Assembly (NCBI GenBank): GCA_976551045.1
Contig: CDPCPM010000259.1
Coordinates: 4,712,001-4,776,000 of the forward strand
Origin: Glaucostegus cemiculus
Taxonomy: Eukaryota
DNA length: 64,000 nucleotides
Direction of reading: 5' to 3'
Part shown: positions 920 to 56,942 of the stretch, one piece after another
How the letters are laid out: every line of letters begins with the position of its first letter
Position numbering within the stretch: position 1 is the first letter of the stretch
The notes under the pieces: model-generated
What the model saw: only the letters and a program-made list of their open reading frames with translations
Told to the model about the DNA's origin: nothing
Databases searched by the model: none
Translations under genes and position numbers: made by a program

Positions 920-1412
920 CAGGGATATTACAATGGTGCAATGAAAAGAACTACTTAATTACCGCTCCAGGTCGGATCCTGATCTCTGCTGCTGTCTGTG
1001 TGGAGTTTACACATCCTCCCTGTTACCGCATGGGATTCCCCCTGAGTGCTCCAGTTTCCTCCCACATCTCAAACACGTACTGGTTGGTAGATTAATTAGC
1101 CACTGTAAATTGCCCCTGCTGTCTAGGTGCGTGGTAGAATCTATGGGGTAGTTGATGGGAATGTGGGGAGAATAAAATAAGTTATGTGGAGACACAAGAG
1201 ACTGCGGATGCTGGAATCTGGAGCAACACACAAGCTGCTGGAGGAACTCAGTGGGTCGAGCAGCATCTGTGGGGGGGGGGAGGAAGGAATTGCTGATGTT
1301 TAGGGTCGAAATCCTGCATCAGGACAAATGGGTTACAGTTGGATTGGTGCTTAATGGTTAGTGTGAACTTTGTAGGCCAAAGGGAATGTTTCTGTGCTGT
1401 ATCCATTTATAA
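920..1412 (+). mobile_element. tRNA-derived V-SINE (HE1-like), interrupted by a Penelope-derived terminus at ~1188-1325
   Basis: Core ctgtctgtgtggagttt...ctccagtttcctcccaca...taaattgcccc, with a CR1-type tail (ggccaaaagggaatgtttctgtgctgta) resuming after 1325. Confidence 0.7.
1188..1325 (-). mobile_element. Penelope-like element terminal repeat fragment with a degenerate hammerhead
   Basis: gagacacaagagactgcggatgctggaatctggagc...ctggaggaactcag...cctgcatcaggac; same family as the 23102, 30053, 54150 and 56604 copies. Confidence 0.7.
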
Positions 1413-1527
1413 CTTTAATACTTTCCTCTTTTTCTAGTCATATAGTGGATTTGAAACTCACTCATACGATTTGAGGATGTGAGGTGTATGTTTACACTCA
1501 ACTAGTGTAAGGATGTCTTTAGTGTAC

Positions 1528-3837
1528 CATAGAACCTTACAGAACAAAACAGGCCCTTCGGCCCACCAAGTTGTGCCATCCTTCAAACATCTCACAATCT
1601 AACTCTTTCCTCCCACATATCCTACTATTCCACATTCTTCCATGTGCCTATCTAACAATCTCTTGAACCTGTCCATCGTATCTGCCTCTACTACCACCCC
1701 AGGCAGTGCATTCCATGCGCCAACCACTCTCTGGGTGAAAAACTTCCCTCTGACATCTCCCCTAAACTTTCCACCCAACATCTTATAGCCATGCCCTCGC
1801 GTCTTGTGCATCTGCACTCTGGGAAAGAGGCGCTGGCTATCAACTCTATCTATTTCTCTCAATATCTTATACACCTCTATCAAGTCCCCTCTCATCCTCC
1901 TCCTCTCCAATGAGTAGAGCCCTAGCACCTTAAGTCTCTCCTCATATTCCATACCCTCTAATCCAGGCATCATCCTGGTAAATCGCCTCTGTACCCTCTC
2001 CAACGCCTCCACATCCTTCCTATAATGCGGCGAGCGGAACTGAACACAATATTCCAAGTGCGGCCTAACTAGAGTTTTATAAAGCAGCATCATCACCTCT
2101 CTGCTCTTGAACTCAATCCCACGATTTATAAAAGCTAACATCCCATAAGCCTTCTTAACTGCCCTATCCACCTGCGAGGCAACTTTGAGTGAACTGTGGA
2201 TATGAACCCCCAGATCCCTCTGCTCCTCTACACTGCCAAGTACCTTGCCATTTACCTCATACTCTGCCCTGGAGTTTGTCCTACCAAAGTGCACCACCTC
2301 ACACTTCTCCGGATTAAACTCCATCTGCCACCTGTCTGCCCAGCTCTGCATCCTATCAATATCCCTCTGTAAGCTCCTACAGTCCTCCACACTATCTACC
2401 ACACCACCAATCTTGGTGTCATCTGCAAACTTACCAACCCATCCTTCCATTCTTTCATCTAAGTCATCTATAAATATAACAAAGAGTAGAGGTCCCAGAA
2501 CCGATCCCTGCGGGACACCACTAGTCACAGCCCTCCAATCCGAGGGCACTCCCTCCACCACAACCCTCTGTTTTCTACAGGAAAGCCAATTCCTGATCCA
2601 CACAGCCAACCTCCCCTGGATGCCCCGACCTCTGACCTTCTGAAGAAGCCTGCCATGAGGAACCTTATCGAACGCCTTACTAAAATCCATATAGACTACA
2701 TCCACGGCACTGCCCTCATCAAGCTTCCTCGTCACCTCCTCAAAGAATTCTATCAGGCTCGTGAGGCAAGATCTTCCCTTCACAAAGCCATGCTGACTGT
2801 CCCTAATCAGTCCGTGACTCTCCAGGTGCTCATAGATCCCATCCCTCAGAATCCTTTCTAACAGCTTACCCACCACAGACGTGAGACTCACCGGTCTGTA
2901 ATTTCCCAGACTATCCCTACTACCTTTCTTAAACAAGGGAACGACATCCGCTACCTGCCAATCCTCCGGCACCATCCCCGTGGACAACGAGGACTCAAAG
3001 ATCCTCACCAGCGGATCAACAATCTCCTCCCTCGCCTCTCGAAGCAGCCTGGGGAATATTCCGTCAGGCCCCGGAGACTTATCCGTCTTGATATTACTTA
3101 ACAATTTCAACACCTCCTCCCTCTCGATAGCTACATACTCAAGAACTACCCTTACCAGCACTCTCTGTCTCGTCATCCAGACCCCTCTCCTTGGTGAATA
3201 CAGAAGAGAAGTATTCATTCAGTACCCCCCCCCCTATTTCTGCCGCCTCCAGGCACATCCTCCCACCCTTATCCTTAGTCGGACCTACCTCACCCTAGCC
3301 ATCTTTCTGCCCTTCACATATGAGAAAAAAGACTTGGGATTTTCCTTAACCCTACGAGCCAACATCATTTCATGTCCCCTTCTAGCTCTCCTCAGCTCTT
3401 TCTTAAGTTCCTTCCTCACTATACTATATTCCTCACGGGCCACGTCCGAGCCTTGCCGCTTACTCCTTACATAAGCCACCTTCTTCCTCCTAACCAGTTG
3501 TTCCACCTCTCTCGTCACCCACGGTTCCTTCACCCTGCCATTCCTCCTCCTCCTCGCCGGGACATATTTATCCCTAACATCCTGTAAAACATCCCTGAAC
3601 AACGTCCACATCTCCACAGTACACTTCCCCTCAAAAAGGACTTCCTAATTTATACTCCCAAGTTCTTTCCTTATAGCCTTATAGTCCACCCTTCCCGAAT
3701 TAAATATCTTCCTGTCCTGTCTGCACCTATCTCTGTCCATGACAATTCTAAAGCTTATCGAGCAATGATCACTGTCCCCCAAATGCTCACCCACCAGCAG
3801 ATCCCTCACCTGTCCCGGTTCATTTCCTAAAACCAGA
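1528..3837 (-). mobile_element. Young 5'-truncated CR1 LINE (ORF2 from the end of the endonuclease through RT to the 3' tail)
   Basis: ORF 1599..3218 has KSPGPDG, NYRPVSLTS, QHGF, DFSKAFD, GVPQGSVLGP, FADD and a CR1 C-terminus; upstream ORFs give GDSDH (APE end); ttctatgg-type tail at ~1528. Confidence 0.95.
1599..3837 (-). pseudogene. CR1 ORF2 (partial EN, RT) broken by two 1-nt frameshifts (~3290, ~3150) and one TAG (~3645)
   Basis: ORFs 3645-3854, 3285-3617 and 1599-3218 join into one CR1 ORF2-like protein. Confidence 0.85.
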
Positions 3838-4459
3838 GAGCAGACTGGCCTCAAATCTGCTCTGACATTCAGCTAAGTCATGGGTGGTCTGGTTTTGGTC
3901 TCAGCTCCATTTTTTCTCCCAATAATCCTGTACTCCCTAACAGACTAAAAATCTGTCTGTCTCAGCCTTGAACATATTCAATGATTGAGCCTTCACAGAT
4001 GTAAAGGGTAGAGAATCCCCAGGATTTATAACCCTCCAAGAGAAGTTCCTCCTCATTCCCATTTTAACCTTTATTCTGCAACTATGTATGAAGAATCTAC
4101 TCTTAAAGATCAGCAGGATTCCTGGTTGTTCTATCCCAGTAGTGCCCACAACTGAATGTGCCAAGACAAAGAAGGGAGAATCACCTGCAATCTACCGCTG
4201 AGTATTACCATAAGATTCAGTGTATAATTCACACCTGTATATAATTTACACTCCCCTTTTGAACCCTCCAGACAGAACCTAACGCCCTGGCTGTATCCAA
4301 ATGGGCACTTGTTGTTGACAGATTGGGCTGGTCTGGGGAGGAACTGCTGGTGGATGTTCAGAAACAATCCCTGTCTTTTCCCAGTTCTAAGGAAAATTAA
4401 AGCACTATTGGTAACTTCGGTGAGGTCATCAGTCCTGCTGTAGACCAGAACCGTAACCT

Positions 4460-5110
4460 AGAGACACAAGAGACTGCAGATGCTGGAGCACACAAAAAGC
4501 TGGAGGCTTTTAAGAGTCAACCTCACTGGTGGAACGAACAAGATGCTGGAGGAACTCAATGGATCAGGAGGCATCTGTGGAGGGAATTGGACAGTCAATG
4601 TCTTGGATTGAGAGCCTTCATCTGGATTGAAAGAGGGGAGGTAGGCAGCATATAAAGGGGTGGAGGGAAGGAATGGAGCAAGAGCTGGCAGGTGATAGGT
4701 GGATCCGGGTGAGGAGGGGTGATAGGCAGATGGGGGAGGGGAGAGTGGGAATCACACCAGAAGCTGGGAAGTGATAGGTGGAAGTGACAAAGGGCTGAAG
4801 ATGAGGGAACCTGATAGAAGAGGAAGGTGGAGCATGGAATCAAGGGAGGGAGGTGGGGAGGGCAGAGGGGAGTAGTGGGGGAGGGGAACCAATAGGAGGA
4901 GTGTGTAGGTGTTGGGCAGATGGAGAAGGGGAAAGAACCAAGATGATGGGGAGCTGGGGTGAGTGTAGGAAGAACGGGGTAGATGAGGAGGAGGGGGACA
5001 GAGGGGGAGCAGTTTACCTGAAATTGGAGAATTCAATGCTTATGCTGTCGGATTGTAGACTATCAAAGCTGTTGCTTCACATTCCAGCATCTGCAGTCTC
5101 TTGTGTCTCC
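4460..5110 (-). mobile_element. Penelope-like 3' fragment: ORF end, pyrimidine-rich UTR, hammerhead-bearing terminus, inverted terminal copy
   Basis: Minus strand ~5065-5013 reads SLQSDSISIEFSNFR*, matching the GIY-YIG ORF end at 30458; terminal motif at 4460 and inverted at ~5070-5110. Confidence 0.75.
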
Positions 5111-5384
5111 ATTTTGAACCTCACTGAAGTCACAAAAAGACCAGACTGGGTAAGGGCGGCAGATTTTCTTCTTTGAGGGAAATATGTAAATCATATACTT
5201 TTTCATTACAATCCAGTAGTTCCATGGTTTCATTACAAAGACATTTTTTAAATGTTCCAGATTTTACTTGATTACTTGGATTTAAATTCTCCTTGGCTGC
5301 CCCGGTGGGATTCAAATATGTGTGGATCAATGGTCTAGAATTCTGGCAGCAAGCTGCCATTAACAGCCACTTGATAATAACAAG

Positions 5385-6540: not shown

Positions 6541-7465
6541 CAGTCCAGATGAAGGGTCTCAACCTGAAATGTTGACTGTCCATTTCCCTCCACAGATGCT
6601 GCCTGACCCGCTGAGGTCCCACAGCTGATTGTTGCTCCAGATTCCAGCATCTGGATAAGTGTGAAGTGGTTCATTTTGGTAGGTCAAATATGTTGGCGGA
6701 ATATAGTATTAATGGTAGGACTCTTGGCAGTGTGGCAGATCAGAGGGATCTTGGGGTCAGAGTCGATAGGACGCTCAAGGCGGCTGCGCAGGTTGACTCT
6801 GTGGTTAAGAAGGCGTATGGTGTATTGTCCTTCATCAGTCGCGGGATTGAATTTAGGAGCCGAGAGGTATTGCTTCAGTTGTATAGGTCCCTGGTCAGAC
6901 CCCACTTGAAGTATTGTGCTCAGTTCTGGTCGCTTCACTACAGGAAAGATGTGGAGGCCTTAGAGAGGGTGCAGAGGAGGTTTACGAGGATGCTGCCTGG
7001 AATGCGGAGCATGCCTTATGAGAGCAGGTTGCGGGAACTCAGCCTTTTCTCCCTGGAGAGGAGGAAGATGAGGGGGGGCCTGATAGAGGTATATAAGATG
7101 TTGAGAGGTATTGATCGGGTACATAGGCAGAGGCTTTTCCCCAGAGCTAAAATGGTGGCCACAAGAGGACATAGGTTTAAGGTGCTGGGGAGTAGATATA
7201 GAGGAGATGTCAGGGGTAAGTTTTTTACTCAGAGACTGGTGAGTGCGTGGAATGGGCTGCCGGAAAGGGTTGTGGAGGCGGATACGATAGGGTCTTTCAA
7301 GAGACTGTTGGATAGGTACATGGAGCAAAATAAGATAGAGGGCTATGGGTAAGCCTAGTAGTTTCTAGTGTAGGGACATATTTGGCACAGCTTTGTGGGC
7401 CGAAGGGCCTGAATTGTGTTGTATGTTGTATGTTCTATGTTCTGTCTGCAGTCCCTTGCATCTCT
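6541..7465 (+). mobile_element. Penelope-derived terminus (6541-6653 plus 7445-7465) split by a CR1 insertion
   Basis: ...ccagattccagcatctg | CR1 | tctgcagtcccttgcatctc restores the family terminal motif. Confidence 0.7.
6654..7444 (+). mobile_element. CR1 LINE 3' fragment with an open ORF2 C-terminus
   Basis: ORF 6666..7352 (HFGRSN...DLGV...LYRSLVRPHL..CAQFWS...LERVQRRFTRM...FFTQR..WN.LP); tail tgttctatgttct; 4-bp TSD tctg. Confidence 0.93.
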
Positions 7466-11975: not shown

Positions 11976-12034
11976 ATACAGTATAACAAAAGCCACAAGT
12001 ACAGTGCAGAGCACAAGCCATTAGTGCGCATGGC

Positions 12035-17875: not shown

Positions 17876-17879
17876 GACA

Positions 17880-18806
17880 GTGGCGGCAGATTTTAGTGCT
17901 CGGTTTCGGAGTGGATGATCCCGTCCTAAGCGGGGTGGGGCGTGCACTCAATGAGCAGGATCCCTCTGTCCTGTGTGTTGATTCAGTCCTCCGTTGTTGC
18001 CTCGGGTATGGGATCCGCACCCCGCTCCCGTGCAGATGCCCTGTACTGAATTCACAGGTGAAAGGGGGAACTGTTTGTAAACATTCACTGCCTTGGAGAT
18101 AAGGGCAGCTCCAAACGAGGAGAAAAGGCTTCGGGAAATAATCAGTTCATTGGGATTGAAAATGTCCAGAAGTCGCTGCTCACGCAGCGTGTGCAGCGAC
18201 GGAGGAAATATTCCTTAATTAATTGGACAGAATATGTCATTGGGTCGTCCGTATCGCACCCCCCTTTCCTTGCGCTGACAGCCTGTGATGTTTAAATGGG
18301 CCAACTTAGCAGCGGCGGAGAGGGCAAATCATGTTTCGTCTCTGAACTAAAGCGTGACTTCAGAAACAAAAATGTAGGTTTAAAATAAAATGTATGAAGC
18401 TATTCAGTAGTAATAACTTCCTTTTTTTAAAAAATAGAAATTCTGGTCTTTTTAGACATCTAAAGAGGGGAGATTTTTTTTAAAAAGAGAGAAACTAACA
18501 TTTTATGGAGATTATACAACTTTTAGGAAGTGTGCTAAATCAGACTGGACAGCCGAGCGGTGTGACTGTACACACGGTTGATCCGCTTAAGGTTTATTGA
18601 TGCAAAGTGTTTGGGAAGGGGGGAAATAACTTTATCTCGAATTGTGAGGTTAAAATCGAATTTAAAAACGCTGCTAGTTTCGTCCTCGCCCGGAAATAAG
18701 AGAAAGGTAATCAGTTAGAGAAACGCTTCAGCGAGAAGCTGGGTCGATAGCGGATCAATAAGCATTTCGCCAAGATAATGTACACGGCGGCGAGTACCTT
18801 CCCGAG
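17880..18806 (+). promoter_or_regulatory. Probable samd11 promoter/5'UTR region, CpG-enriched and repeat-free
   Basis: CpG density rises relative to the flanks just upstream of the first coding exon; TSS cannot be placed. Confidence 0.5.
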
Positions 18807-19407
18807 ATGTCAGGTATAGGGAGACAGATGAGAACGGCGGCAGAGGTCGAAGTGTTAGATCTAAGTAAAACGGACAAGGGCTGGGGATATCACAGGTCGA
18901 AGCCGTTCCCGCATTTTAACGGCTTCGCTCGGAAGGAGAAACTACGGACAGAGGAACTTATTGCAAGCGTGTACATGAGAATGCCTGCCATCAAGAAGGA
19001 GAGAGCCGATGGGGAGATGGTCACTCGGGGGCTGCTGGACAGTCTCCCCGAATATTTGGCCCCTCTGTCCATCCCAATGATGACCCCGCACCCTACGCCT
19101 TACGAGCACATCTTCACCCGGCGCCAGCGTGCCTTCCTGGGTCTCCCCGAGGCTACCCACCCAGGCGACCTAATGCTAGAACGCTTCCATGCCATCCCTG
19201 ATTTCCAGCCCATCTTTGACAACGGGGAGCCCTGCATCGAAGTGGAGTGCGGCGAAAACAAAGCCCTCCTCTACATTCACAAACTGTGCCAAGGTAGCAA
19301 GGGACCCTCCATCCGCTACAGGGGCGAGTGGCTGACCCCCAACGAATTCCAGTTCGTCAGCGGCAGAGAGACAGCCAAGGACTGGAAGCGGAGCATAAGG
19401 CATAAAG
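18807..19407 (+). CDS. samd11: SAMD11 coding exon 1, including most of the SAND domain (conserved start MPAIKKE at 18981; first in-frame ATG at 18807)
   Basis: MPAIKKE...PDFQPIFDNGEPCIEVECGENKALLYIHKLCQGSKGPSIRYRGEWLTPNEFQFVSGRETAKDWKRSIRHK matches the long vertebrate SAMD11 isoform as I recall it; KDWK SAND motif; donor AAG|gtgggt at 19408, phase 1. Confidence 0.93.
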
Positions 19408-19439
19408 GTGGGTGCATGCGAAGGTGAAGCTGAGGGAGG

Positions 19440-22900: not shown

Positions 22901-23101
22901 TTTAATTAATTTCAGATTAATTACTCCCAGCTTCATTTCTACATGTATCGCCACATAGCATAAGTGGAAAATATAAGTCAATGCATTTTTCTCATTCGAT
23001 GACTTACCTATTTCTGAATGTCTGGTCTGATAAAATGACACAATAATAATTGCAGTGATGATTCCCTCCTCTGAGTTTAACACTGCTGGATATTGATTTG
23101 T

Positions 23102-23297
23102 AGCATCACACAAGATGCTGGAGGAACTCAGCGGGTCAGGCAGCATCCATGGAGGGAAATGGACAGTCGAGGTTTCAGGTCGAGACCCTTCATCAGGACT
23201 GCTAGATGCAAGACTGATAGATGCCGCCTGACCCGCTGAGTTCCTCCAGCATTTTGTGTGTTGCTCCAGATTCCAGCATCTGCAGTCTCTCTTGTGT
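23102..23297. mobile_element. Fold-back Penelope-derived mini-element with a 16-bp TSD
   Basis: TSD ctggatattgatttgt at 23086-23101 and 23298-23313; 41-bp inverted arms at 23107-23147 and 23220-23260. Confidence 0.85.
23164..23201 (-). ncRNA. Minimal type I hammerhead ribozyme motif (near-consensus)
   Basis: Minus strand cagtc-CTGATGA-a-gggtctcgacct-GAAA-cctc-gactg: stem I cagtc/gactg, core CUGAUGA and GAAA, stem II; stem III has CCTC where the 56806 copy has CGTC. Confidence 0.7.
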
Positions 23298-29260: not shown

Positions 29261-30052
29261 TGCCCAAATCAGCCTTCTAAAACCATGTTAAGTCAGCGGT
29301 CTAACCAGCCTCTAACAGCACCAAGCAAGAGAAGGTTGGAAGTATTCAGAAGGACAGGCAGCATCTTTGGAGAGAGAAGCTTTAGACAGTTAACATTTCA
29401 TTATCATTTACCTTTAATTAAAGCTCTGGGGGAAAAAGCAGACATTAAACAAGTTTTAATTTCCACAGAAAATTGTTTCATTTCTCACTTTACAATGATT
29501 CAAAGATCATTGAATTGAAAGATTCTTTCTCCACAGATGCTGCCTGACCTGCTGAGTGTTTCCAGCATTTTCTGTTTTCGTTTCAGATTTCTGGCATCTG
29601 CAGTGGTTTGCTTTTGGACTGACAGGAGCACCTATCACAAAGCTAATGGGAACATTTGGGGGTCTTGTGTAAGAATGTGTGAACCCCATGTGACCATCTG
29701 TAATAAGATTTATTCCTTCAATCCTGCAATTTCTGTGGACATGTCTCATGAATCTGATTTTTTTTCCTGGAGGTAACAAGGAGATTGATGAAGGTAGGGC
29801 AGTAGTTGTTGTATATATGGACCTTAGAAAGGCTTTTGATGCAGTCCCGTTAGGTAGGTTGATCCCAAGGGATCTGAGGTGTATTGGTGAACTGGATCCA
29901 AAATAGGCTTTGTGATAGGAAGCAGCGGGTAGCAGTGGATGAACATGTCTCTGGCTGTAACAAGTGGTGTATCACAGGGATCAGTGCTGTTTGTAACATA
30001 TATAAATTAATTGGATGAGGATCTAGTGGATATGAAGTCTGGATAATGAAAA

Positions 30053-30912
30053 GAAACAAAGGACTGCAGATGCTGGAATCTAGATGAGAAACACAATGGT
30101 GCTGGAGGAACTCAGCAGGCCAGGCAGCATCCATGGAGAAAAGCAGGCGGTCAATGTTTCGGGTCAGGACCCTTCTTCAGGACTGAAGATAGGAAAAGGG
30201 GAAGCCCGATATATAGGAGGGAAAAGCAGAGCAGTGATAGATGGACAAAAGAGGGGAGGCGGGGTGGACACAAGGTGGTGATGGGTTAGATGCAGGTAAG
30301 AGATAGTGATGGGCAGGTGCGGGGGAGGAGGGGAGAGCAGATCCACCGGGGGATGGGTCAAAGGTAAGGAGAGAGAGGTAAAAACAGGTAGGAAAAAAGA
30401 GGCTAGGGAAGGGAAGAAGCACGGTAGGGGGGAGGTTGTGGGGAAGTAATGTGGAGATTACTTAAAGTGGGAGAATTCAATGTTCATGCCGTTAGGCTGC
30501 AAGGTTCCAAGATGGAAAATGAGGTGCTATTCCTCCAATTTGTGTTTGGAATTCTCCTGGCAGTGGAGGAGGCTGAGGACTGACATATGAGTGATGGGGG
30601 GAGTTGAAGTGACTTGCGCTGGGGAGATGCAGATCACGATTATGGACTGTGGAACAAGATGGCAGCATAGACACAGAGCAAGGAAGGTCACATGGCTATG
30701 GAACCGAGTCTGAGTGAGCGCATGGTTGAGGAGCGGGAGAGCAGAGAAGATCACAGAGTGGGGGGGGGGAATTGAGGGAGGGACTCACGAAACTCCCATG
30801 GAAGAGAGGAAGAAAACTTCTTCAAAGTGGGCATCCTTGAAGAGACTTTGCAGTGGAACAGTAATACTGGAGAAACAAAGGACTGCGGATGCTGGAATCT
30901 GGATGAAAAACA
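30053..30912 (-). mobile_element. Internally deleted Penelope-like element with direct terminal repeats
   Basis: gaaacaaaggactgc.gatgctggaatct.gatga.aaaca at 30053 and 30872; minus strand NHALTQTRFHSHVTFL..CL joined to HFNS...MSVLSLLHCQ...KLEE*HLIFHLGTLQPNGMNIEFSHFK* (GIY-YIG end). Confidence 0.8.
30148..30185 (-). ncRNA. Minimal hammerhead ribozyme motif in a Penelope terminus
   Basis: cagtc-CTGAAGA-a-gggtcctgaccc-GAAA-catt-gaccg. Confidence 0.65.
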
Positions 30913-33449
30913 AAGAAGAATGTTTAAAAATACAGTGGGACATAGATCAGCTGGAAAGTTGGGCGGAGGGGTGGCAGATGGAACTTAAACAGACAAGTGT
31001 GAGATAATACACTTTGGGAAATCAAATCCTGGAAGGAAATATAGAGTATATAGCAGGAACCTTAGGAGTGCAGATGTACAAAGAGACCTTGGGATACAAG
31101 TCAATAGCTTCCTGAAACTGGTGATGGACGTGGATAGGATAATGCAAAAAGGCATTTGGATGCTTGCCTTCGTAGGCTGCAGCATTGAGTATAAGATTTG
31201 GGACACCATGTTGCAGTCATACAAAAGATTGGTTAGACTGCACTCTACAGTTAGACTGTACAGTTCTGGTCACCGCACTACAGAAAGGATGTGGTAGCAA
31301 TAGAGAGAGTACAGAAGAGATTCACTAGGATGTTGCCTGGAATGGTGACCTGTAGATACAAGGAGAGGTTGCATGGGCTGGGTTTAATCTCATTGGAATG
31401 TAAGAGGCTGAGAAATGATGTTATAGGTGTTTACAAAATTATGGGGGGCATAGGTAGGATGGACCATCAGAATCTTTTTCCTGGGGCAGGGGTGTCTAGA
31501 TGTAAGGTGAGGGGGAGAAATTTAAGGGAGATCTGAGAGGTAAGTTTTTCACAAAGAGGGTGGTGAATATTTGGAACAAGCTATCAGAAGAGGTAGTGGA
31601 GGCAGATACTATCACAATACTTAAAAGGCATTTGAACAGATACTTGGATAGGAATGGCACAGAGGGATATAGGCCTAACATGGGCAAATGGAATTAGTGC
31701 AGATATACATCATGTTGGTACGGGCAAAATAGGCTGTAAGGGGCCATTTCTGTGCTGTATGTTTCTATGATTATATGCACTGTGGAAGGGTTTGACTCCA
31801 TTATTGTCTAAACAAAAATCTGCCACATATTACCACTGCTCTTCTGAAATTACTTCGCCTTGAATTTTATTCATTTGTGATGTTAGTGTCCCTAGAGTGA
31901 TCCAATTTAAAAATGTGAGCACTTTTTCATGGTTAGTTACACCAGTTTTTAGCCCAAGTTAGCGTCAACTATTTCCATAATTTACTATTGCATGGATTTT
32001 CCTGCAGTATTGCCCGAGAGGAGCTGTTGGAGAAACTTCTTTTCAGAAGGAAAGTCTTCACTAAAAATGTAACGTTCCTCTTTAAGTCAGATTTCAAGCT
32101 TTCTCCCTTTGTGATTTATAGAAATCAACCTGGATGTGCAGTAATCACAAAAGGATGCTGTGATAAAGTGGTACTCTGGTCACCAGGAGTCTCTGTTGCT
32201 TAGTAACCTGGAGACAGAGCTTGGGAGCTGGGAAAAGCTGTCAATCCTCACTCCAGCATGGTTCAGAACTAATGAGCTTCTTAAGAATTAGTTGATCTTG
32301 AAATGATTGGAAAACTGAACTGGATAATTTGGTGCAGGGTGAGTAGGTTTGGGGAGGTGGGGCAGAGAGAGGAGGAGGAGGAGGAGGAGGGGTAAAATCT
32401 TGCAAATGCAGGGACTCTTAATGTCCATGGAGAATTAATGAAACCTTGTGATGTGTTCAGCAGTTGTCAATGTTTAAACCCTAGGATAAGATGCAGAAAG
32501 TGTCCTGTGGCAACATGATAGACTGGCACTTCTGCCAGGTAATTTGAAGGTGTGAGGCTGCAAACTGAGCTGTATGATCTCAATTTCCCTCGACGTGGGG
32601 GGAAGGGAAACTTAATAAATTAAAGCAGTTAAACTATGACAGATAGATTTCCCCTCCTGATCCAGGACAACCATGGGTTACACATCAGCTCACTGGGAGG
32701 GAGGTTATTTTAAATAGACTTCAAAGAGTTGTTACTTTATTTTGCAAAGTCCAATTCTAAAATTGGCAAAAATGGTAAAGGAAGGATACAATAGCCTCTT
32801 TGTTGGATGGTCGTAGTCTCATAACAAGGATCAAATATCAGTCCTGCCCTGCACGATGTGTATTAATCTCAATGCTCCAAACACTGGAGACATTTTGAAT
32901 CAAAGCAGATATTTTTTCTCTGTATTTTGCAAGGATAATGCCACAAGCAGTTCGAAACCTGAAGATTTTCCCCAAACTTTCTACAAACTGTGTCAGTTAC
33001 AGGGGTGAAAGTGTTCTGCAGTCTCTGACAGAGAGACGAGCCAGGTTTTCAGTAGTTTTGGGAAAGTTACAAAATTCAGACGGATTCTTAAAGTGGCAAA
33101 TGGTGCTGGTTAAGTTATGCTGGTTACCAAACTGAAAATTAAAATAAACGTTCAAAAAGGAAACATTCTCATGGCAAGGGGTTGGAGTTCCAGAAGAGAC
33201 CATGTGAGCAATTCTGGCCTGGTGTTTGAACCTTCAACCTTCAAAGCTGAGAGTGTAATTAGCTGAGCTGAATTGACATTTAAAATAGTGACAATGTATT
33301 ACATCAAATGTTTGCACTCCAGAATGGAATGGATTTATGGTGGTCCAGAATGAAAATGGTGTTGGTCCCACTAACACTTACTTTGGACAAAAAGCCCCTG
33401 TAAAATACTGTGGTTTCAGAAGAAAGGAAGTTTGTTAAGGGGGCATTGG

Positions 33450-33566
33450 ATACACAAGAAACTGCAGTTGCTGGAATCTGGAGCAACAAGCAATCTGCTG
33501 GAGGAACTCAGCAGGTTGAGCAGCATCTGCTCGACCTGCTGAGTTCCTCCAGCAGATTGCTTGTTG
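33450..33566. repeat. Penelope-terminus-derived near-perfect palindrome (40-bp arms, 3-nt loop)
   Basis: 33484-33523 versus 33527-33566; a single U-G wobble on the + transcript. Confidence 0.9.
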
Positions 33567-33949
33567 ATAAGGACACATTACTTCTTCTGTTCCTTATAAA
33601 AGCCTCAAGCTATTAAAAATGAACTCAGCAATCTTAACAAGCAGTCACTGATATTTAATGAAGAATAAGTTGCAAAACTGTAGGGATATAAGAAGGGGGC
33701 GGGGGAAAATGGGAATGATGGGATTAGTATGCTGGCAGTCAGCGTGGACCTGATGGGGTGAATGCCCCTCCCAGTGGTATAGGATGCAAGATGCCTATAT
33801 TTTCCCTTATAGTTGAAAGCTAAGAAAATGTAGATGCTGGAAATCTGAAATAAAAACAGAAAATGCTGGAAACACTCAGCAGGTCAGGCAGCATCTGCAG
33901 AAAGGGAAGCAGAGTTAAAATTAGGGTCATTTTTAAAATATCTTCTCTA

Positions 33950-35060
33950 ACGATGGGGACTTCAGGGTCACTAGCCACAATTTCTAAACTGGCAGATGAC
34001 ATAAAACTAGGCAGCAAAAAACAAACTGCTGGAGGAACTCAGCGGGTCAGGCAGCATCTGTGGAGGGAAATGGGTGGTTGACATCTTGGGATGAGACCCT
34101 TCACCTGGATGTGATTTTTTGCTGCAGATTCCAGTGTCTGCAATCTCTGTGTCTCCATTAAAGTGAAGCAGCGTTGCGAACTGTGTAGTGGGATATAATT
34201 GGGCTGGTGGAGCAGACAGATTGAGTTTAATGCAGGGAAATCATTTTGGTTGGAAGGATGGGGAGAGGCAATACAGAATAAATGGTTCTAAAAAGGGTGC
34301 AGGAGCTGAGGGGGCAAATGGGACTAGCTTCAATGGGCATCTTGGCCAGAATGGATGATTTGGGCTGAAGGGCCTGTTTCCGTGGTGTATGACTCTATGA
34401 CCTGTAGGTCTGGGTGCACAAATCATTGGAGGTGACAGAGTAGGTTCAGAACATGGTTAATTGGGTGCATGCAGTTGTGAGCTTCATCAAGAGAGGCATA
34501 GAATATAAAAGCAGAGGCATTATTGTTGAACCTGTATAAAAAAGTGGTGCAATCTCAGCAGGTATATTGTGTTCAGTTCTGGTTGCTACGTAATAAGTAG
34601 AATGTGAAGGCTTTAAGAGAGTTCAGAAAAGATTGAGGACTAAGTTCACAAGGCTAGATTGGAAAGGGTGGATTCCTTGGAGAAGAGAAAGCTGAGGAGA
34701 GATTTGGTAGAAGTATATAAAATAATGAGGGATCTGGGCGGAGTGGAGAATGAGAGGCTGTGCCCTTTGGTAGAGGGGTCAATGATTGAAGACTAGAGGT
34801 GTAAACTAAAGGCGGAGACAATTAAGGGAGACCTGAGAAAAACTTTTATGCACTGTGTGTTTGGAATCTAGAATGCACTTCCCGCAGATTTGGCAGAGGC
34901 AGGTTCCATTGTGGCCTTCAGGAAGGTATCAGACAGATATACAGCGGAGAAAAATTTGAAAGGCTTCAGAATATGGGCCACGAGTTGGAACTGGAGAGTT
35001 GACATGGTTGACAAGTGTGGATATAATGGGCCAAATCACCTTCTCCAGTGTTGTAATCAT
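33950..35060 (+). mobile_element. Old CR1 fragment with nested Penelope terminus (~34015-34157) and SINE/CR1 tail (~34305-34400)
   Basis: ISKLADDIKLG, later LYKKVV.S....CVQFW, and a CR1 tail. Confidence 0.7.
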
Positions 35061-39609: not shown

Positions 39610-40619
39610 TCTTTCTTTTTCAATCTTTTTATTGATAACAAATCATTACAGGTTAAGATATATAACAACAATGTTTACACATGTATTATAAAAATATCAA
39701 GTAAATCGTAGGTCATCATAAAAAAAGCAATAAAGTATGATGTATATAAAAGAAATAGTTCCAACAATATCTAGGTTCATAAGTGTAATATAAAAGATAA
39801 AAAAGAAAAAGATTTGTTATATAATTAGAAGAAAAAAAAAACCCAAATCAATTTTTAAATTTTTTTTAAAAATCATAATAATATAGAGTAAATTAAACCG
39901 AAAATGAATTTTTAAAAAAGGGGAAAAAAAACCAAAACAAGAGGGAAAAAAACTGGGCTAAAATTCAATAGAAATAGAACAATATAATGTTGTCAGCTCC
40001 GTTTCTCTAAATTTAAAAAAAAGTTATAGAAGGGGAAACTACATTGTATGAAAGTATTGAATAAATGGACTCCAAATATCTTCAAATTTAAGCGAAGAAT
40101 CAACAGTACCACTCCTAATTTTTTCCAAATTAAGACATGATATAGTTTGAGAGAACCATTGAAAAGTGGTAGGGGGTATTGGATCCTTCCATTTGAGCAG
40201 GATGGCTCGTTTGGCCATCAATGTAACAAAAGCAATCATACGATTAGCAGAAGCAGGTAAATGGCCAGACTTTATCCATGGTAATCCAAAAATTGCAGTA
40301 ATAGGGTGAGGTTGTAAATCGATCTTCAATACATCTGAAATAATATTAAAAATGTCTTTCCAATATTTTTCCAAATTAGGACAAGACCAGAACATATGTG
40401 ACAAAGAAGCCACGTTTGATTTACATCTGTCACATATAGGGTTTATACGATCATAAGAACGAGCTAGCTTATCTTTGGACATATAGGCCCTGTGCACAAC
40501 TTTAAACTGTATCAATGAATGTCTGGCACACATTGAGGATGTATTAACTAAATGAAGAATTTTCTTCCAAGTCTCTATAGATATAGAAATCTGGAGTTCA
40601 ATTTCCCAATCATTTTTAA
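39610..40619 (-). mobile_element. 5'-truncated L1 LINE with a perfect 13-bp TSD
   Basis: ORF 40039..40533 with the L1 CCHC knuckle (CDRC...SLSHMFWSC); AATAAA plus A/GAAA tail; TSD ttgactatttctt at 39597-39609 and 40620-40632; TCTT/AA endonuclease-type site. Confidence 0.93.
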
Positions 40620-42368
40620 TTGACTATTTCTTAATGTGGCTCATTGTCATACTGAATAGTATTTGTATAAATCAAGTTGGGATGTTTGTTTTGCACTCTT
40701 GCACTGTACTGCTGCCACAGAACAACAAATATCATGACATATGTCAGTGATAATAGACCCAGTTCTGATTTACTATGTTAAAGATGCTATATAAATGTAA
40801 GTTCTAATTAGAACAGTGGCTCCAAGGATTTGAGCTCAGCATGAAGCTGTGAGAAGGGATTCATTAACCTCAGGGAAGCATATAAATACATGGCATATGA
40901 AATTAAAACAAAGCCCAGTGTATTGTGGCTGAGTGCTGCTAAGAACAAAAAATATTGGCTGGTACTGGTTTGTCAGTTTGGACCTTACTGCTCCATGGGT
41001 TTGGCCAAGTCTTTCCCAATTCATATTGATCTTTGGATAAAAGTGATTTAACCTTTGTTTCAGCAGATGCAGTGGCCAGGGTAGTTGTACTGGTGTTGAG
41101 TTGTAGTGGGAGAATCTTGGGGAAACTGATGGGAATGCGGAGAGAATAAAATGGGGTTGGTTTGTGATTAGTGTAAATGGGTGCTTGCTGCTCATAGAGT
41201 CATACAGCACGGAAACAGGCCCTTCGGCCCGATTCGTCCATCGCAACCAGGATTCCCATTTGTCTGTGTTTGGCCCATGTCCCTCTAAATCTTTCCTATC
41301 CATGTACCATCAGTGCTGACTCACTGAGCCAAAGGTCCCGTTACTGTGCTGTGTGGTTCTGACTCCTAAGTAATCATCTGATCTTGAAAAGTTGAAAGGA
41401 TTTCTGTCCCTTCACTCGTTCTTATACTGTGCTCAATACTATATCGTTTCATATTGCTTTTTGAAATAGCAAAACAATGTGAAATTCTTGTGCTGATTTT
41501 CAGTTTGGAGACTGCCTAATTATGATCTGAGTTGGAACTTGGTGCATTCTCAAATCTGAAAGCTAAAGCTTGGCTTCAGCATATTATTAGATGCAGGATG
41601 GCTGTTCCTGTTGGTTGACAACTTGTCAGAAATAATGCTTCCAATGTCCTTCAACTGATTTCTAAATCAAGTGGGATGTTTTTCCAAGACTGTTAAAGGC
41701 TACCAATGTAGATCAGTTTTAAAGAAGGGAAGACTTCCTTTTGGCTTGTAGTCATTTCCCCAGTACTTAATTTGATAGGGTGGGTTTGGACTCAATGCAT
41801 TTGGAGTGCACCTGGAGAATATTACATTATCCATCAAGGGTTCATCGTTATTAAGATTTCAGCTACAAAGTTAAACTGGAGAAGCTGGGGTTGTTGGAGC
41901 GGAGAGAACTGAGATGAGATGAGACTGAGTAGGTGGATCTGAGTCCATGCCATGACCTTATTGAATGGCGGAGCAGGCTCGACAGGCCAGATGGCCTCCT
42001 GCTGCTCCTGTTTCTTATGTTCTTATGAGATTTGAGAGAGGTGCACAAGATTATGGGGAGTTGGGTAAGAGGGGGAAGATGGTTTGAGGACCAGGAGAAA
42101 TGGATTCAAAGTGAAGGCCAAGAAGACAGGAGGGAATGTGAGGATTTTTTTTTACCTCAGGGCTGGCAATGATCTGCTGTGTTGAAGGTTAATAGAAACA
42201 GAGTCAGGACTTTCGAAAAGAATTGGAGCACCTGAATTCGTGGTAACTGCATTCAGAGAGCATTACCTCAATTTTTGCAATCTGCTGTGTGTTGCTAAAT
42301 AAACTTCCGACATCTAGTAAATCCTGAACTAATAGCTTTTGTAAGTAAACCAATTTTCTTAACATATA

Positions 42369-43242
42369 CAGTGGTATGCAGAAGCTTGGGCAACCCTGGT
42401 CAAAATTTCTGTTACTGTGAATAACTAAGAGAGTAAAATATGTCCTGATTTCCAAAAGGCATAAAGTTAAAGATGACACATTAATATTTTAAGCCAGATT
42501 ACTTTTTTATTTCCATTTTTTACAGTTTCAAAATAACAAAAATGGAAATGGGCCCGAAGCAAAAGTTTGGGCACCCTGCATGGTCAGTACTTAGTAACAC
42601 CCCCTTTTGGCAAGTATCACAGCTTGTAAATGCTTTCTGTAGCCAGCTAAGAGTCCTTCAATTCTTGTTTGGGGGATTTTCGCCCATTCTTCCTTGCAAA
42701 AGGCTTCTAGTTCTGTGAGACTCTTGAGCTGGCTTGCATGCACTGCTCTTTTGATGTCTATCCACTGATTTTCAATGATGTTTAGGTTAGGGGACTGTGA
42801 GGGCCATGGCAAAACTGTCAGCTTGTGCCTCTTGAGGTAGTCCATTGTGGAGTTTGAGGTGTGTTTAGCATTGTTATCTTGTTGTAGAAACCATCCTCCT
42901 TTCATCTTCAGCTTTCTTACAGACAGTGTGATGTTTGCTTCCAGAATTTGCTGGTATTTGAATTCATTCTTCCCTCTACCAGTGAAATGTTCCCCATGCC
43001 ACTGGCTGCAACACAAGCCCAAAGCATGATCGATCCGTCCCTGTGCTTATCAGTTGGAGAGGTGTTCTTCTTATGAAATTCTGCACCCTTTTTTCTCCAA
43101 ACTTTCCTGCGTCCTCACCACAAAATTCAGTTTCAGAAGTTTGCAAAGGAACACCTGAACAAGGCTGATGCATTTTGGAAACAAGTCCTGTGGAATGATG
43201 AAATTAAAATAGAACCTTTTGGCCACAATGAGCAAAGGTATG
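42369..43242 (-). mobile_element. Tc1 (DD34E) DNA transposon remnant with a single TIR
   Basis: TA-cagtggtatgc end; inner and outer repeats ca.aag.ttgggca(a)ccc at ~42379 and ~42560; QDN...WPSQSPNLNIIE with 34 residues between D and E. Confidence 0.92.
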
Positions 43243-45600: not shown

Positions 45601-45639
45601 AGGAAGGCACAAAGGAAGTGTGGTAATTAGTAATAGTTT

Positions 45640-52004: not shown

Positions 52005-52243
52005 AAAAGAACTTAGCTGGTCAAGCAGCATCTGTGGAGGCAAAACAGATGCGTTGACGTTTCAGGTCGAGGTTGAGAAAGACTTAGTTTCCCCTTCCCC
52101 TCCTCTCACCCTATTCCTGATGCAGGGTCTCAACCTAAAATACTGAATATCCCTTTACCTCCACAGACACTGCCTGACCAGCTCAGCTCCTCCAGTAGTC
52201 TAATGTTTGGTCCAGATTCCAGCACCTGCGGTCTCTTGTGTCC
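52005..52243. mobile_element. Fold-back Penelope-derived element with a degenerate hammerhead (+, 52112-52149)
   Basis: Inverted agctggtca.gcagcatctgtggagg / cctccacagacactgcctgaccagct; tattc-CTGATGC-agggtctcaacct-aaaa-tact-gaata. Confidence 0.7.
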
Positions 52244-52599
52244 CTTCCTTAACATCTATTGTAAGGAAACGATTAAAGTCTTTTAATGTCACATAGCTGA
52301 TAAAAAAAAGCCAGGACTTCCTTCTGGATGTTCCTGTGGAAACTTGCTTCCAACGCTGGCATCAACTGGAGTTGGTGCCAGCATCTTCCAATCCAACCCC
52401 TGTGGCTGTCCCTGTGCTCACTGGACACCAACCGGGCGGTGGGCTTTTCCACTGTCTTCCCAGTTCTTTGATCTGGTTCTCCACTGCAAATGCAATGTAA
52501 AATGATTTGGTTGGAGGCTGGGGGTGGGGGAGGGGGGAATGGTACCTAATAGATGAGAACAAAGTAACAGTAAAATTAATTTATCAAAATATAAGTGGA

Positions 52600-53105
52600 A
52601 TTTGTGAAGAACAATTGATGTTGGGGAACAGGCTGCAGAGGGGCAAATGGAACTTAATGTCGGTCTATTGCGAGGTGATACATTTGTTTAAGAAGGGTGT
52701 AATTATGTTCTGAATGTGGATGTGGAGAGATGGTGTTGGAGCGAGTTGTGAGTTCAGGTTTACAGGACATTAAAGGCAGCACCTCTGGTTGATAAAGTTG
52801 TCAAGAGGCTAATGTAAATCCTAGGTTTTGACATAAGAAGCACAGAATATAAAAACCTGCGGTAAATTATGAGCCTGTATAAAACTGTAATAAGATCTTT
52901 TGGAGTACCGTATGCACCATATTATAGGAATGTTATTTAGGCTTTAGGGAGGGTATCTCATCGATTCACTGCAAAATAGTTTGGAAGGAGGAAATAGAGA
53001 TGCAATTGAAGGTATGAAATATTGGATATTTTTCATTAAAGCAACAGATTAAGGGCAGAATGATGGAAGAGTCTAAAATAATGTGATAGGACAGGGTAGA
53101 TAAGA
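52600..53105 (+). mobile_element. Highly degenerate CR1 fragment
   Basis: QMELNVGLLRGDTF / CEVIHL, LYKTV, HYRNVI remnants. Confidence 0.55.
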
Positions 53106-54149
53106 GTGGAGTTTCAGTCACATCTTTACAAAGCAATTTTTAAAATCTTTATCACAGTATATAAAATGAATGATGTAGAGCCTTTCACATCCAAAATACT
53201 TTACAGCCAGTGAATAGTTTCTGAGGTATTCTTTGTAGGAAACACGGCAGCCTCATTGAGCGCAGCAAGCTCCCACAAACAACAGCAAGATGAATGACCA
53301 CCTAATTGCGTCATAAATTTCAGTGAATCACTGAGTGTTGTTTTGGTTGAGGAATAGGCATTGCCTAGGACAGTGGTTAAAAATCCCCCACCCTTCTTCA
53401 AATGGTTCCATGGGACCACCATAAACACTAGAACAAGAGGACAGTTTCCTTGGTTGCTGTTATCTCATCTGGGATTTGTTGAAGGACTTCTGATGCATTT
53501 AAGATATCTTCTTCAATACACATACTGTCTTATGACACCGGATTTTCATTCATCTGCTGTAAAAGAATGTGGTTTAATTGTAAGCCTGCAGGTTTGTAGA
53601 TATCAGTCAAATCCTTTTAGCTATGCTACCACAACATATGCTTATAATTAGAAATGTTCTTCATTTGCACCAAAATAGTTTGTACAATAATTAGCATTTA
53701 AAATGGAATCTATGTGATTTTAATGTCCATTTATTTATTCTCTGTTACAATGTGGTAGAAGACTGTCTTTGTTATGGATTATTACGGGTAACATGTGTGG
53801 TTTGGTAATTACAGAAGTAAGTGGTTGCATTTCCTAGCCTGTTGTACTATTTCTACAGCACCTGAAGTTGTGCAGACAAGAACAACTAACTTAAGGAACT
53901 CTGTCAAATGTTTATGATTTCCCCACCTGAAGATCATGCTTGCTGCTAAATTGCACAATCCAAATATATGTCCAATTTGCTTCATTTTCCATTTGCCAGG
54001 CTTTTTAACTTCACTGCTGAGTCCCCTCTTGTTCTCAGTCAAAATCTACATGCTCCCAGGAAGAACTACTGGATAAGGATAAAGGGGAAAGACCTTTGTC
54101 TCCTCACATCCTGAGCAGAAAGTAATCAAATCTGGCACCTTCTGGTCAG

Positions 54150-54640
54150 GAGGCACAAGAGACTGCAGATGCTGGATTCTGGAGCAACAAACAATCTGCT
54201 GGAGGAACTCAGCGGGTCAGGCAACATCTGTGCAGGGAAATGGGCAGTTGACATTTCGGGTCAAGACCCTTCATATGGACTGAAAGAGTAGAGGGGAGTA
54301 GCCGGTATAAAGAGATGAGGGGAAGGGGTGAACAAGAGCTGGCAGGTGATAGGTGGATCCAGGTGAGGAGGGAAGAGTGACAGAGGCTGGAAGGTGATAG
54401 GTGGAGGCAACAAAGAGCTGCAGATGATGGAATCTGATTGGAGAGGAAAGTGGAACATGGAACTGAGGGAGGGAGGTGGGGAGGGCAGATGGGAACAGTA
54501 GGGGGATGGGACCTAGTGGGAGAGCTTGTGGGTGATGGGCAGATGGAGTGGGTGGAGGAGGGGAAAGAAACAAAGTGACGAGGGGCTGGGGTGTGTGTAG
54601 GAAGAACTGGGTAGATCAGGTGGAAAGGGAAAAGGGACAC
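54150..54640 (-). mobile_element. Penelope-like 3' UTR and terminus
   Basis: Collinear with 4460-5010; hammerhead relic at 54245-54282. Confidence 0.8.
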
Positions 54641-55169
54641 TTGGCACATTAGGCAGTATGATCGTGACACATGCAAATGTTTTACTTCAGCAGTTTAGAA
54701 GAATGGATGTGCTGCATGGGTCACGGAGTGGCAACACTAACTTCGTTCTTGTCCAGTGGTGACGTGGATAGTGCATTCCAAATCTGTGCCTTGAATCACA
54801 ATGTTCTACACTGGATAATGGCAAAGAACATGGCTACAGGTGTCTGTGTCCATGTATTGGGTGAGGACAGAGTAACTCTGAGTGAGTTGTGAGGGTGGGT
54901 CGCTTGGGAAGAGCTTTCAGTTCCATGTTTCTCACTCCTCATCACCATCCAAGGACTCCTGAAATGGTGTTGTGGTCGGACCCAAATCTCGAAGGGTCTC
55001 CCAACTCTCCTGCCTTGTGTTATCTAGCGCAGCTTTCAAATGCCTCACATCTTTGACTGTACATCTGGGCAGGTCCCCTAACTTGCCTTTCGTTCCTCTT
55101 TCATGGTGTTCTTCAACTGTGAAGCACTTCGACATGTGTCACATTGAATGTGCCATGTAAATGCAAGGT

Positions 55170-55525
55170 TAGAGTCATACAGCAAGGAGACTGGCCCTTC
55201 AGCCCACCAAGATCACACCAACTCCTTAGCATCCACTTATGCTAATTCTGCACTAGTCCAGTGTATTCTCCCTACATTCCCCTCAACTTTATCCCAAATT
55301 GTACCACTCATTTACACACTAGGAGCAATCTACAATGGTCAGTTAATCTACCAACCTGCATATCTTAGGGATTCTAGAAGGAAACTGGAGTCCCTGGGAA
55401 AACCCAAACAGTCACAGAGAGAATGTGCAAACTCCACACTGACAGCACCTAAGGTTAAGATCCAACCACAGTCAATGGAACTGTGGGGCAGCAGCACTAC
55501 CTACTGGGCTACAGTGCTGCCCCCA
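55170..55525 (-). mobile_element. V-SINE (HE1-like)
   Basis: gagaatgtgcaaactccacactgacagc core, reverse of the 43615 copy. Confidence 0.75.
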
Positions 55526-56603
55526 CTGTGCCACCCTAATATTTGCCACATTAGTTGAGTGTCTTACTAGTATTCCCCGGAAAGGCTTACAACATTATAA
55601 CTACTTGGAACGGAGCAGAGACATAACATGAGGGAGATATTGTTATTTCTATAGAGGTACAATGACCTGTGAGTAATAATGGATGCAATCCTTTATAGTA
55701 AGTCTTGTTCCATTAAACAACGGACAATGTGGTCTTCCTTGTGGAATGGAATTTGGTTCTAATGGAAGAGGTAGCAGACAGGCTCAGCAGTTTAGAACTC
55801 TAATGTTAGTTAGCGGCAGGGTGTCTGCCCTCCACTACCTGAGGAAGTGTCGCTTTCACATGCATATTTGTGGCGAGCTTTAAGTGGAGAACAAGCCTTC
55901 CCCATGGAGACGGAAGAATCAAAGAACCAGTCACTCACCCTGATTGGTAACTCAGTTGTGTTGTGTGTGTGAGCCCATTGGACAGCCAACTGCTTGGAAA
56001 TAATGGGAAGGAAAAATAAATTCCATGTGTTCCCACTAATAATCTCTTGTGTTTCTATCGAAAAGGGAAGACTTGCTTCTGTATTTGCCTTTCATTTTCT
56101 CATAGGTCATCCCAAAATGATTTCAAGTATTATAATGTTGCAAATTCTTGCACATGTGATGGTTTAATGACCAGATAATTTGAGGAATGCATTTGGCCAG
56201 AATCCCGGGAGACCTCCCCCACAAACTTTCACATCCATTTGAGAGCAGACTGGGTCTTGGTTTAATGTCTCATCCGGTAGCCAGCACCTCCAACAGTGCA
56301 GAGCTCCCGCGACCTGGATTCTGCCAATTCCTTGGACTTAAACCAACAAAAACCTTCTGTCCTGCTGACTCACAGCTAACAATCCTCCATTATTTCCCGG
56401 GCACACCTCCTAATGGTGAATGCAGAAGCAGCAACTGACTGCAAGCTTTTTCTTTTTTTGGGCGTCAACTGCCCTGATAGTAGCACCCTCAGGAGACTCT
56501 GGACCTACTCCAGAGATTTGGGCATAAAATCTAGACTGCCACTGCAGTATTGAGAGAGTGCTGCACCGTTGAAGATGCCATCTTTCAGATTAGATGTTTA
56601 ACT

Positions 56604-56942
56604 CCCTTTGCCTCTCCCCTCTTTTCTCCTTGTCCACCTCCATCTATCACCCACCTGCCGCGGTCTTCCCACCCCAAACCCCCTCCCCTCCCTGGCACCA
56701 CCTACCTGTTATGTCACACCTCTCCTCAGTCTGCCAATCACCTCAGACTCCTGTCGCACCACTCCCCCTCTCCTCTTCCTACCGGCCACCTCCCCTCTCC
56801 ACTCTCAGTCCTGATGCAGGGTTTCCACCTGAAACGTCGACAATTCCCTCTCCCACCCCCACAGACGCTGCTCGACCCGCTGAGTCCCTCCAGCAGATTG
56901 TTTGTTGCTCCGGATTCCAGCATCTGCAGTCTCTTGACCTTC
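56604..56942 (+). mobile_element. Penelope-like 3' UTR and terminus with a 13-bp TSD
   Basis: TSD tagatgtt(t/a)aact at 56591-56603 and 56943-56955. Confidence 0.82.
56806..56841 (+). ncRNA. Hammerhead-like motif (CUGAUGC variant), sense to the samd11 pre-mRNA
   Basis: cagtc-CTGATGC-a-gggtttccacct-GAAACGTC-gac; palindromic ACGT stem III and GUC site intact. Confidence 0.6.

Follow-up and report, generated by a model that had tools for sequence, protein, structure and literature searches.

Decayed ends of endonuclease-positive Penelope-like retroelements with minimal hammerhead motifs in Glaucostegus cemiculus and a probable origin of their short copies

Hammerhead motifs and their parent element

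The window analysed here, a stretch of 64,000 nucleotides (nt) from the genome of Glaucostegus cemiculus (assembly GCA_976551045.1, contig CDPCPM010000259.1, positions 4,712,001 to 4,776,000 of the forward strand), carries nine dispersed minimal hammerhead ribozyme motifs within repeats that we assign to the ends of Penelope-like elements (PLEs). The motifs were first noticed in an original prediction made from the letters alone, and an ungapped scan of the window confirmed all nine sites on the strands claimed; three of the spans are better given as 1290–1327, 34075–34112 and 56806–56843. Positions within a copy are numbered from the first base of stem I (+1), and the predicted cut site follows +33. 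The copies belong to five subfamilies: A (CUGAUGA), B (CAGAUGA, change U4A), C (CUGAUGC, change A9C), D (CUGAAGA) and an older subfamily E with a 3-nt loop. The flanking sequence tracks the core type, and copies linked to an open reading frame (ORF) exist in both B and C. The window units are collected in Table 1; among 12 of them, target-site duplications comprise one perfect 16-nt and one 10-nt repeat, and 2 of 60 random pairs scored above 16.

The window hammerheads are broken in every copy. The motif that had been fitted to a hammerhead consensus is present at 9/9 sites, whereas an intact core combined with the ACGU palindrome is found at 0/9. In site order from 1290 to 56806, the core mismatches number 2, 3, 1, 0, 0, 4, 3, 2 and 1. 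The canonical core (CUGANGA, GAAA, NUH) is kept in two of the nine copies, 23164 and 30148, neither of which can self-pair at the position of the palindrome, and the ACGT palindrome is kept only at 56806. The pattern CTGATGA-N(8-20)-GAAACG has 0 matches in the window, and an Rfam scan of the window returned no hammerhead family at E values up to 1. The stem I covariation that had been pointed out at 52112 pairs in 5/5 positions, but only one pair is doubly changed relative to subfamily C and the core has its mismatches; it is weak evidence and sits in a dead copy.

Table 1. Units and features of the Penelope-like repeats in the window
Feature	Position	Strand	Remarks
Short copy, subfamily C (core CUGAUGC, A9C)	1187..1327	-	Hammerhead 1327-1290 and tail; begins at about +3
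Separate tail fragment	4461..4500	-	Just past the 10-nt duplication
10-nt target-site duplication	4519..4528 (left), 5117-5126 (right)	+	Weak on account of its length: random pairs scored at least 10 in 5/60
Insertion unit, subfamily B (U4A)	4529..5116	-	Inverted tail arm ~5070-5116, last ORF codons (stop 5014-5016), pyrimidine-rich spacer, hammerhead 4629-4592, tail
Short copy, subfamily B (U4A)	6541..6659	+	Hammerhead 6541-6578 and tail; begins at +1
Perfect 16-nt target-site duplication	23086..23101 (left), 23298-23313 (right)	+	
Head-to-head unit	23102..23297	.	Minus arm from +1 (hammerhead 23201-23164, core intact, ACCU); truncated plus-strand tail arm from 23217
Two old degenerate tail arms, head-to-head	29331..29604	.	
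Internally deleted copy, subfamily D	30052..30915	-	Tail plus ORF N-terminus (30915-30650), fused with the GIY-YIG end; then spacer, hammerhead 30185-30148 (core intact, ACAU) and tail
TATATAT box, predicted core promoter element of the pseudo-long terminal repeat (pLTR)	30209..30215	-	Starts 30 nt upstream of hammerhead +1
Penelope ORF C-terminal end (GIY-YIG region)	30458..30647	-	One internal stop; terminal TAA 30460-30458
Palindrome of two tail arms	33447..33567	.	No hammerhead between the arms
Old tail fragment	33822..33908	-	
Short copy, subfamily B	34010..34157	-	Hammerhead 34112-34075, 4 core mismatches; inverted tail arm 34119-34157
Head-to-head unit	52007..52243	.	Minus arm 52071-52007; plus-strand subfamily C copy, hammerhead 52112-52149, stem I TATTC/GAATA, 3 core mismatches
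5'-truncated copy, subfamily B	54149..54630	-	Spacer, hammerhead 54282-54245 (2 core mismatches), full tail
5'-truncated copy, subfamily C	56670..56940	+	Spacer, hammerhead 56806-56843 (A9C, ACGU intact), full tail
Isolated tail-end fragment	59824..59854	.	

Judged by their sequences, the repeats are the ends (pLTR plus tail) of endonuclease-positive (EN+) PLEs, as the original prediction had supposed; ORF linkage, reverse transcriptase (RT) and endonuclease (EN) motifs, and homologs support this assignment. A first look with the GIY-YIG fragment upstream of one intact motif yielded 32,379 candidates in the genome (2.85 Gb), and the motif lies downstream on the same strand in 16 of the 20 top loci chosen by that fragment. 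Longer genomic copies contain a DKG motif, RT motifs, a C-x4-C-x2-C linker and a YIGET region in one decayed (frameshifted) frame, with RT motifs and YIGET together in copies L048, L097 and L098 and the linker in L048, L050 and L098. For the RT fragment there are 13,605 genome candidates and 33 homologs in the database, among which rays and a shark supply the best. The homologs carry RT (PF00078), PF26215 and, in some cases, GIY-YIG (PF01541). Run on the decayed fragments themselves, Pfam returned only RVT_1 at an E value of 0.021 and nothing for the EN fragment, and NCBIfam gave no match for three element fragments.

The elements are ordered as ORF (RT, zinc-finger linker, GIY-YIG), stop, pyrimidine-rich spacer, minimal hammerhead and tail, and the tail sequence is the ORF's own 5' end. 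In L163, a full-length copy of 3.5 kb, the tail forms a direct repeat at the two ends, with the 5' tail running into the ORF, as it also does in L097. The linker that separates RT from EN points to the Neptune clade, a placement that is likely on this character. Two window copies had been said to adjoin the GIY-YIG end of the ORF, and both do: in tblastn, 30458–30647 aligns with the end of a full-length homolog (E value 0.001), and about 15 codons ending in the TAA at 5014–5016 precede the 4592 copy. The unit at 30052–30915 joins the ORF start to the ORF end, with junctions that differ among 14 similar loci. A fixed deletion family was rejected as its origin, as only the L178 junction among 14 other loci lies nearby and is not identical. 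Many subfamily D copies (L178–L191) join the ORF start straight to the 3' piece, each with its own junction; that of L182 falls exactly at stem I, and template jumping may perhaps lie behind such joints. Two ray proteins with host-gene names contain pieces of the Penelope ORF, probably through annotation read-through or exonization.

The hammerhead across the genome

The intact 31-nt form of the motif has 187 exact matches in the genome against 0 for a reversed control, a looser family pattern 8,593 against 0 and a general hammerhead core pattern 20,752 against 1,022; a profile search of random genome stretches (1 Mb) gave 166 matches against 0 in reversed sequence. Extrapolation from 202 matches of at least 25 bits in 1,390 kb of sampled stretches gives a copy number of a few hundred thousand genome-wide if the sample is typical.

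The proposed minimal type I anatomy (stem I, core and stem II) is borne out at the level of the family. The core is canonical in subfamilies A, D and E and is not canonical in B (U4A) and C (A9C); 81 of the 100 matches listed have a canonical core (hand count). The ACGU palindrome is present in the majority sequences of subfamilies A–D, which supports the proposed loopless, palindromic and dimer-only stem III; 1/9 window copies has it. In 112 aligned motifs, 74.7% of the stem cells are paired, against 71.9 ± 0.6% in shuffled and 14–39% in slid alignments (3 of 111 motif hits were dropped beforehand as another repeat). The inner pair of stem I (5–36) is C–G in 43 rows and U–A in 26, a change that reads as one event, inherited by E, that separates subfamilies. 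Doubly changed pairs number 9 against 7.4 in shuffles, a value reached in 58 of 500 shuffles and hence not above them, so that few independent covariation events are indicated. A second Penelope family, F, with its own RT frame, has the same core and different, fully paired stems (TTCCC/GGGAA and GCTC/GAGC). The pairing at family level, the inner-pair change and the family F stems together make the hammerhead reading sound at family level. Compensatory change in stems I and II is supported at this level, though by few independent events.

The inserted copies decay neutrally, and selection on them is not seen: the core has changed at 40/462 positions (8.7%) and the tail at 197/2,092 (9.4%; p = 0.66), and an intact motif is present in 0 of 111 randomly sampled copies. 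Monomers fold no more stably than shuffled sequences (z from -1.6 to +0.9), and the predicted minimum-energy fold of the dimer is a rod rather than the active hammerhead form. Core changes usually reduce hammerhead activity, some natural variants retaining a part of it (PMC3088659); the hammerhead-variant text of that source names neither U4A nor A9C.

Family F also occurs in another arrangement. At a contig end, tandem units of ~1.18–1.35 kb (L222, L223, L231; contig C4:1-25000) with telomeric (CCCTAA)n tracts between them contain a perfect, unchanged minimal hammerhead, an arrangement which suggests telomere-associated insertion. A related copy in L224 (3450–3490) has a 274-residue open RT frame. 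About nine same-strand family F motifs lie 56–145 kb apart on contig C1 (9.83–10.48 Mb), suggesting a large segmental repeat or a gene cluster. By their sequence, the tandem units fall under the tandem-hammerhead definition of retrozymes and could form dimers; an active ribozyme is more likely to be found among them than in the window family. Matches to the general core with other middles, some recurring, were seen in L225, L226, L227 and L230; their stems look weak, and tblastn found no Penelope ORF nearby.

Copy ends and the origin of the short copies

The repeats had been described as ribozyme-terminated. Neither end of the copies is the ribozyme cut site: the 5' ends lie near +1 and the 3' ends cluster near +100 and +130 to +137, i.e. 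~70 or 100 nt beyond the cut site. Of 186 matches assessed, 99 passed the filters on score and 3' end (beyond +70), 86 of them from the random sample and 85 after duplicate removal; the replicate kept 33 of 71, the old subfamily E being left out for want of an upstream reference. Among 5' ends within -60 to +50, 26/60 in the first random sample fall in -3 to +6 and 1/60 in +29 to +38 (p = 2e-12), and the replicate gave 12/26 and 3/26 (p = 8e-7). Pooled, 38/86 ends lie at the stem I start and 4/86 at the cut site. Simulated uniform truncation placed 28/384 ends in the -3 to +6 bin, and fewer than 1% of true upstream ends were misplaced there. The same boundary is apparent in the genome at large, where two purines directly before stem I (pyrimidines in long copies) occur in 2,215 matches against 36 in the control; 30 such loci that were fetched do not have the upstream pyrimidine tract (pyrimidine share 0.23–0.70). 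In the sampled stretches, 26 pairs are head-to-head and 2 tail-to-tail, and 21 of the 26 have an arm starting in -3 to +6 (hand count, one arm counted twice). Copies of every length occur. Three public raw RNA runs, whose species identity with G. cemiculus is not established, contain the repeat in both orientations, with 7/11 of the strand-switch joints listed at +1 to +8.

An AT-rich box lies at a fixed distance from this boundary. TTTATA or TATATAT begins 30 nt upstream of +1 in the majority sequences of subfamilies B, C and D, and TTATT is found at -28 in A; a TATA-like motif has one other occurrence in 4 × 150 nt, and the surrounding tract is pyrimidine-rich. Stem I begins YCAGTC, which we take to resemble the initiator of RNA polymerase II. 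A TATA box with an initiator has been proposed for the Penelope pLTR of the rotifer Adineta vaga (PMC3846280).

We consider it likely, with a probability of about 70%, that the window repeats are decayed ends of several EN+ Penelope subfamilies, probably of the Neptune clade, and that the short copies are by-products of the element's own enzyme copying uncut RNA to its start rather than a separate short interspersed element (SINE). Transcription would begin at the 5' strand of stem I, driven by the box 28–30 nt upstream, and reverse transcription would be primed at either end of the tail. Priming on the 3' pLTR would give ordinary 5'-truncated copies, priming on the 5' pLTR would end by run-off at the RNA start after ~100–135 nt and leave stubs of fixed size, and priming from both nicked strands would produce head-to-head units. 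Run-off from a start at stem I requires an uncut template, which agrees with the normal insertion of ribozyme mutants of an anole element (PMC11167929). In the in vitro work on that element, reverse transcription is initiated internally on the RNA, at the ends of the tail; extension takes place on both strands, and no reads begin at the cut site (PMC11167929). In the source elements, the hammerhead is likely to have been a dimer-dependent, weak or protein-assisted cutter, and its cleavage probably did not define the copied template. For the narrower proposal, that the promoter initiates on the hammerhead's own 5' strand and that on the order of a hundred thousand stubs are complete run-off copies of the first 100–135 nt of uncut RNA, we see the chances as even.

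Several observations weigh against this account. The pLTR promoter of Drosophila virilis Penelope is TATA-less and starts upstream of the hammerhead (PMC2377424). Family F has no box at -30, and the TTATT of subfamily A is a poor TATA match. The +1 base in boundary copies is C in 54/100, above the expectation for a start at A alone; a cap-like excess of G at +1 is weak (21/46 of the non-C bases against 31%, p = 0.027) and is not relied on. Read starts or ends form no pile-up in the three RNA runs, either at +1 or after GUC. Copies that run into the ORF start at -2 to +5 in only 2/13 cases, with a query that began at +93; 40 such genome matches exist. The comparison of short and long copies described below has modest power (11–74 copies per group, the old subfamily E left out), so that small independent lineages are possible. 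Finally, a 38-nt hairpin (-12.7 kcal/mol) has its base at +1 too, and a structural stop is possible there.

This last point underlies the main rival, which we regard as unlikely: that, with no promoter involved, reverse transcription or second-strand joining halts at the base of the hammerhead hairpin. It draws on the coincidence of +1 with the outer pair of both stem I and the monomer hairpin, and on the retention of C at +1 in the boundary copies noted above. The pile-up is, however, equally strong in subfamily C (13/28 ends in the bin) despite a stem I of three pairs, and the AT-rich box at a fixed -28 to -30 would be left unexplained. Fold-back at stem I was rejected, as it requires inverted arms to start at +39 and the partner arms begin at scattered positions.

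The original prediction itself, of a self-propagating non-autonomous SINE-like family with ribozyme-cleaved ends that is mobilized in trans by Penelope, now appears improbable. High abundance, the fixed size class of +1 to +135, target-site duplications on some units and transcripts in the public RNA runs would all suit such a family, and non-autonomous PLE derivatives are known (PMC8557442; bioRxiv 2026.07.22.740005). The positions of the copy ends largely refute it, and the sequences of the copies do not set short ones apart: in subfamilies A–D no column differs between short and long (ORF-linked) copies after correction, so that the two are separated by no diagnostic column, and short and long copies are equally diverged (0.10/0.09 in A, 0.13/0.14 in B, 0.15/0.14 in C and 0.09/0.06 in D). 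This likeness favours repeated production from full elements. The regions upstream of short copies appear mutually unrelated, deletion junctions are copy-specific and vary among 15 loci, intact motifs are absent from the random copies, and the sampled stretches showed no tandem arrays of this family (of the 202 matches, 11 same-strand pairs lie within 600 nt).

Least probable is that the short copies derive from spliced RNA, with the spacer as a spliceosomal intron from a donor at the ORF stop to an acceptor at the CAG of stem I: GTAA does overlap the stop in most long copies of A–D, a pyrimidine tract and CAG precede the core, and the D. virilis intron ends at helix I (PMC4209133), but the predicted spliced junction has a single genome match, with a mismatch, no such joint is among the 15 read joints listed (of a longer list) and short copies share no upstream exon, so that an intron was rejected as their source, although rare spliced transcripts may occur. 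In-frame read-through across tandem units after splicing was likewise rejected, since a stop in subfamily D blocks it.

Relation to known elements and implications

The presence of minimal hammerheads in the PLE termini of fish, as well as 5' truncation, inverted arms and tails, is known already. The closest described set is that of metazoan PLEs, including fish Xena, Poseidon and Neptune (Cervera and De la Pena 2014, PMC4209133), whose described motifs share with ours the short stem I, an extra base between 9 and 10.1, G10.1–C11.1, a palindromic 15.2–16.2 without loop III, mostly solo copies from truncated elements and opposite-strand pairs. The copy load here is higher, at ~145 matches per Mb compared with 4,000 motifs in coelacanth and 9,000 in Xenopus counted there by another method, and two abundant subfamilies carry the core changes U4A and A9C. 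One supplement file of that work contains no shark entries. Neptune-clade EN+ PLEs (Craig et al. 2021, bioRxiv 2021.04.23.441226, PMC8557442), as described in the passages on this clade, have in common with the present element a single ORF with DKG motif, RT, CX2-5CxxC linker and C-terminal GIY-YIG, heavy 5' truncation, an inverted truncated 5' copy, an optional 30–40-nt tail and a hammerhead near the 3' end. That linker, on which our probable placement in Neptune is based, occurs in Nematis as well. The fixed 5' end at stem I seen here is absent from those passages.

The Poseidon element PAc of Anolis carolinensis (Frangieh et al. 2024, PMC11167929) shares, in the parts of the study that bear on it, the hammerhead at the junction of pLTR and ORF, a tail identical to the ORF start, extension of both strands, insertion for which cleavage is unnecessary and two RT start sites at the tail ends, for which the evidence is biochemical in PAc and comes from genomic copy ends here. 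It belongs to another clade, is without the linker, and has its ORF start at stem II, whereas the ORF apparently starts after the cut site here. Non-LTR retrozymes (PMC7229834; bioRxiv 2026.07.22.740005) are likewise described as non-coding, of PLE origin and with a type I hammerhead; they consist of tandem units each with a hammerhead, whereas our family is made up of dispersed monomers or head-to-head pairs, and identity of the window family with retrozymes was rejected on this ground. A promoter inside the pLTR, as predicted here, is described for Penelope of D. virilis (PMC2377424) and A. vaga (PMC3846280); in the fly element, transcription starts upstream of an intron lying ahead of the hammerhead, whereas the start predicted here is stem I itself.

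The window contains other coding sequence. An open frame on the plus strand at 18762–19427 encodes a SAND domain (PF01342, E value 4e-23) and is likely to be a host gene exon. On the minus strand, 1599–3218 is an open frame of 539 residues with a LINE-type reverse transcriptase (PF00078, E value 5e-33), which we take to be CR1-like, and many shorter fragments of this repeat lie elsewhere in the window. A zf-RVT fragment (40039–40623, E value 3e-5) and a DDE_3 transposase fragment (42591–43046, E value 1.5e-9) are also on the minus strand.

In a literature search outside which lay subscription papers and the Repbase and Dfam entries, nothing was found on this family or on a pile-up of 5' ends. 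The literature consulted describes the Penelope hammerhead's role as unclear, and a family of this size gives a genomic read-out of it. The avoidance of the cut site by the copy ends agrees with the in vitro study of the anole element, as far as that study bears on it (PMC11167929). If the account given here is true, the genome holds an in vivo record of where transcription starts and of the two RT start sites, and the template for transposition was not cut by the ribozyme; the wide amplification of the U4A and A9C subfamilies would be consistent with insertion that does not need the ribozyme. The account makes exact predictions of the start site and of a TATA box, and natural core variants are on hand. 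A dense SINE-like repeat in the genomes of cartilaginous fish is better annotated as end-pieces of Penelope elements.

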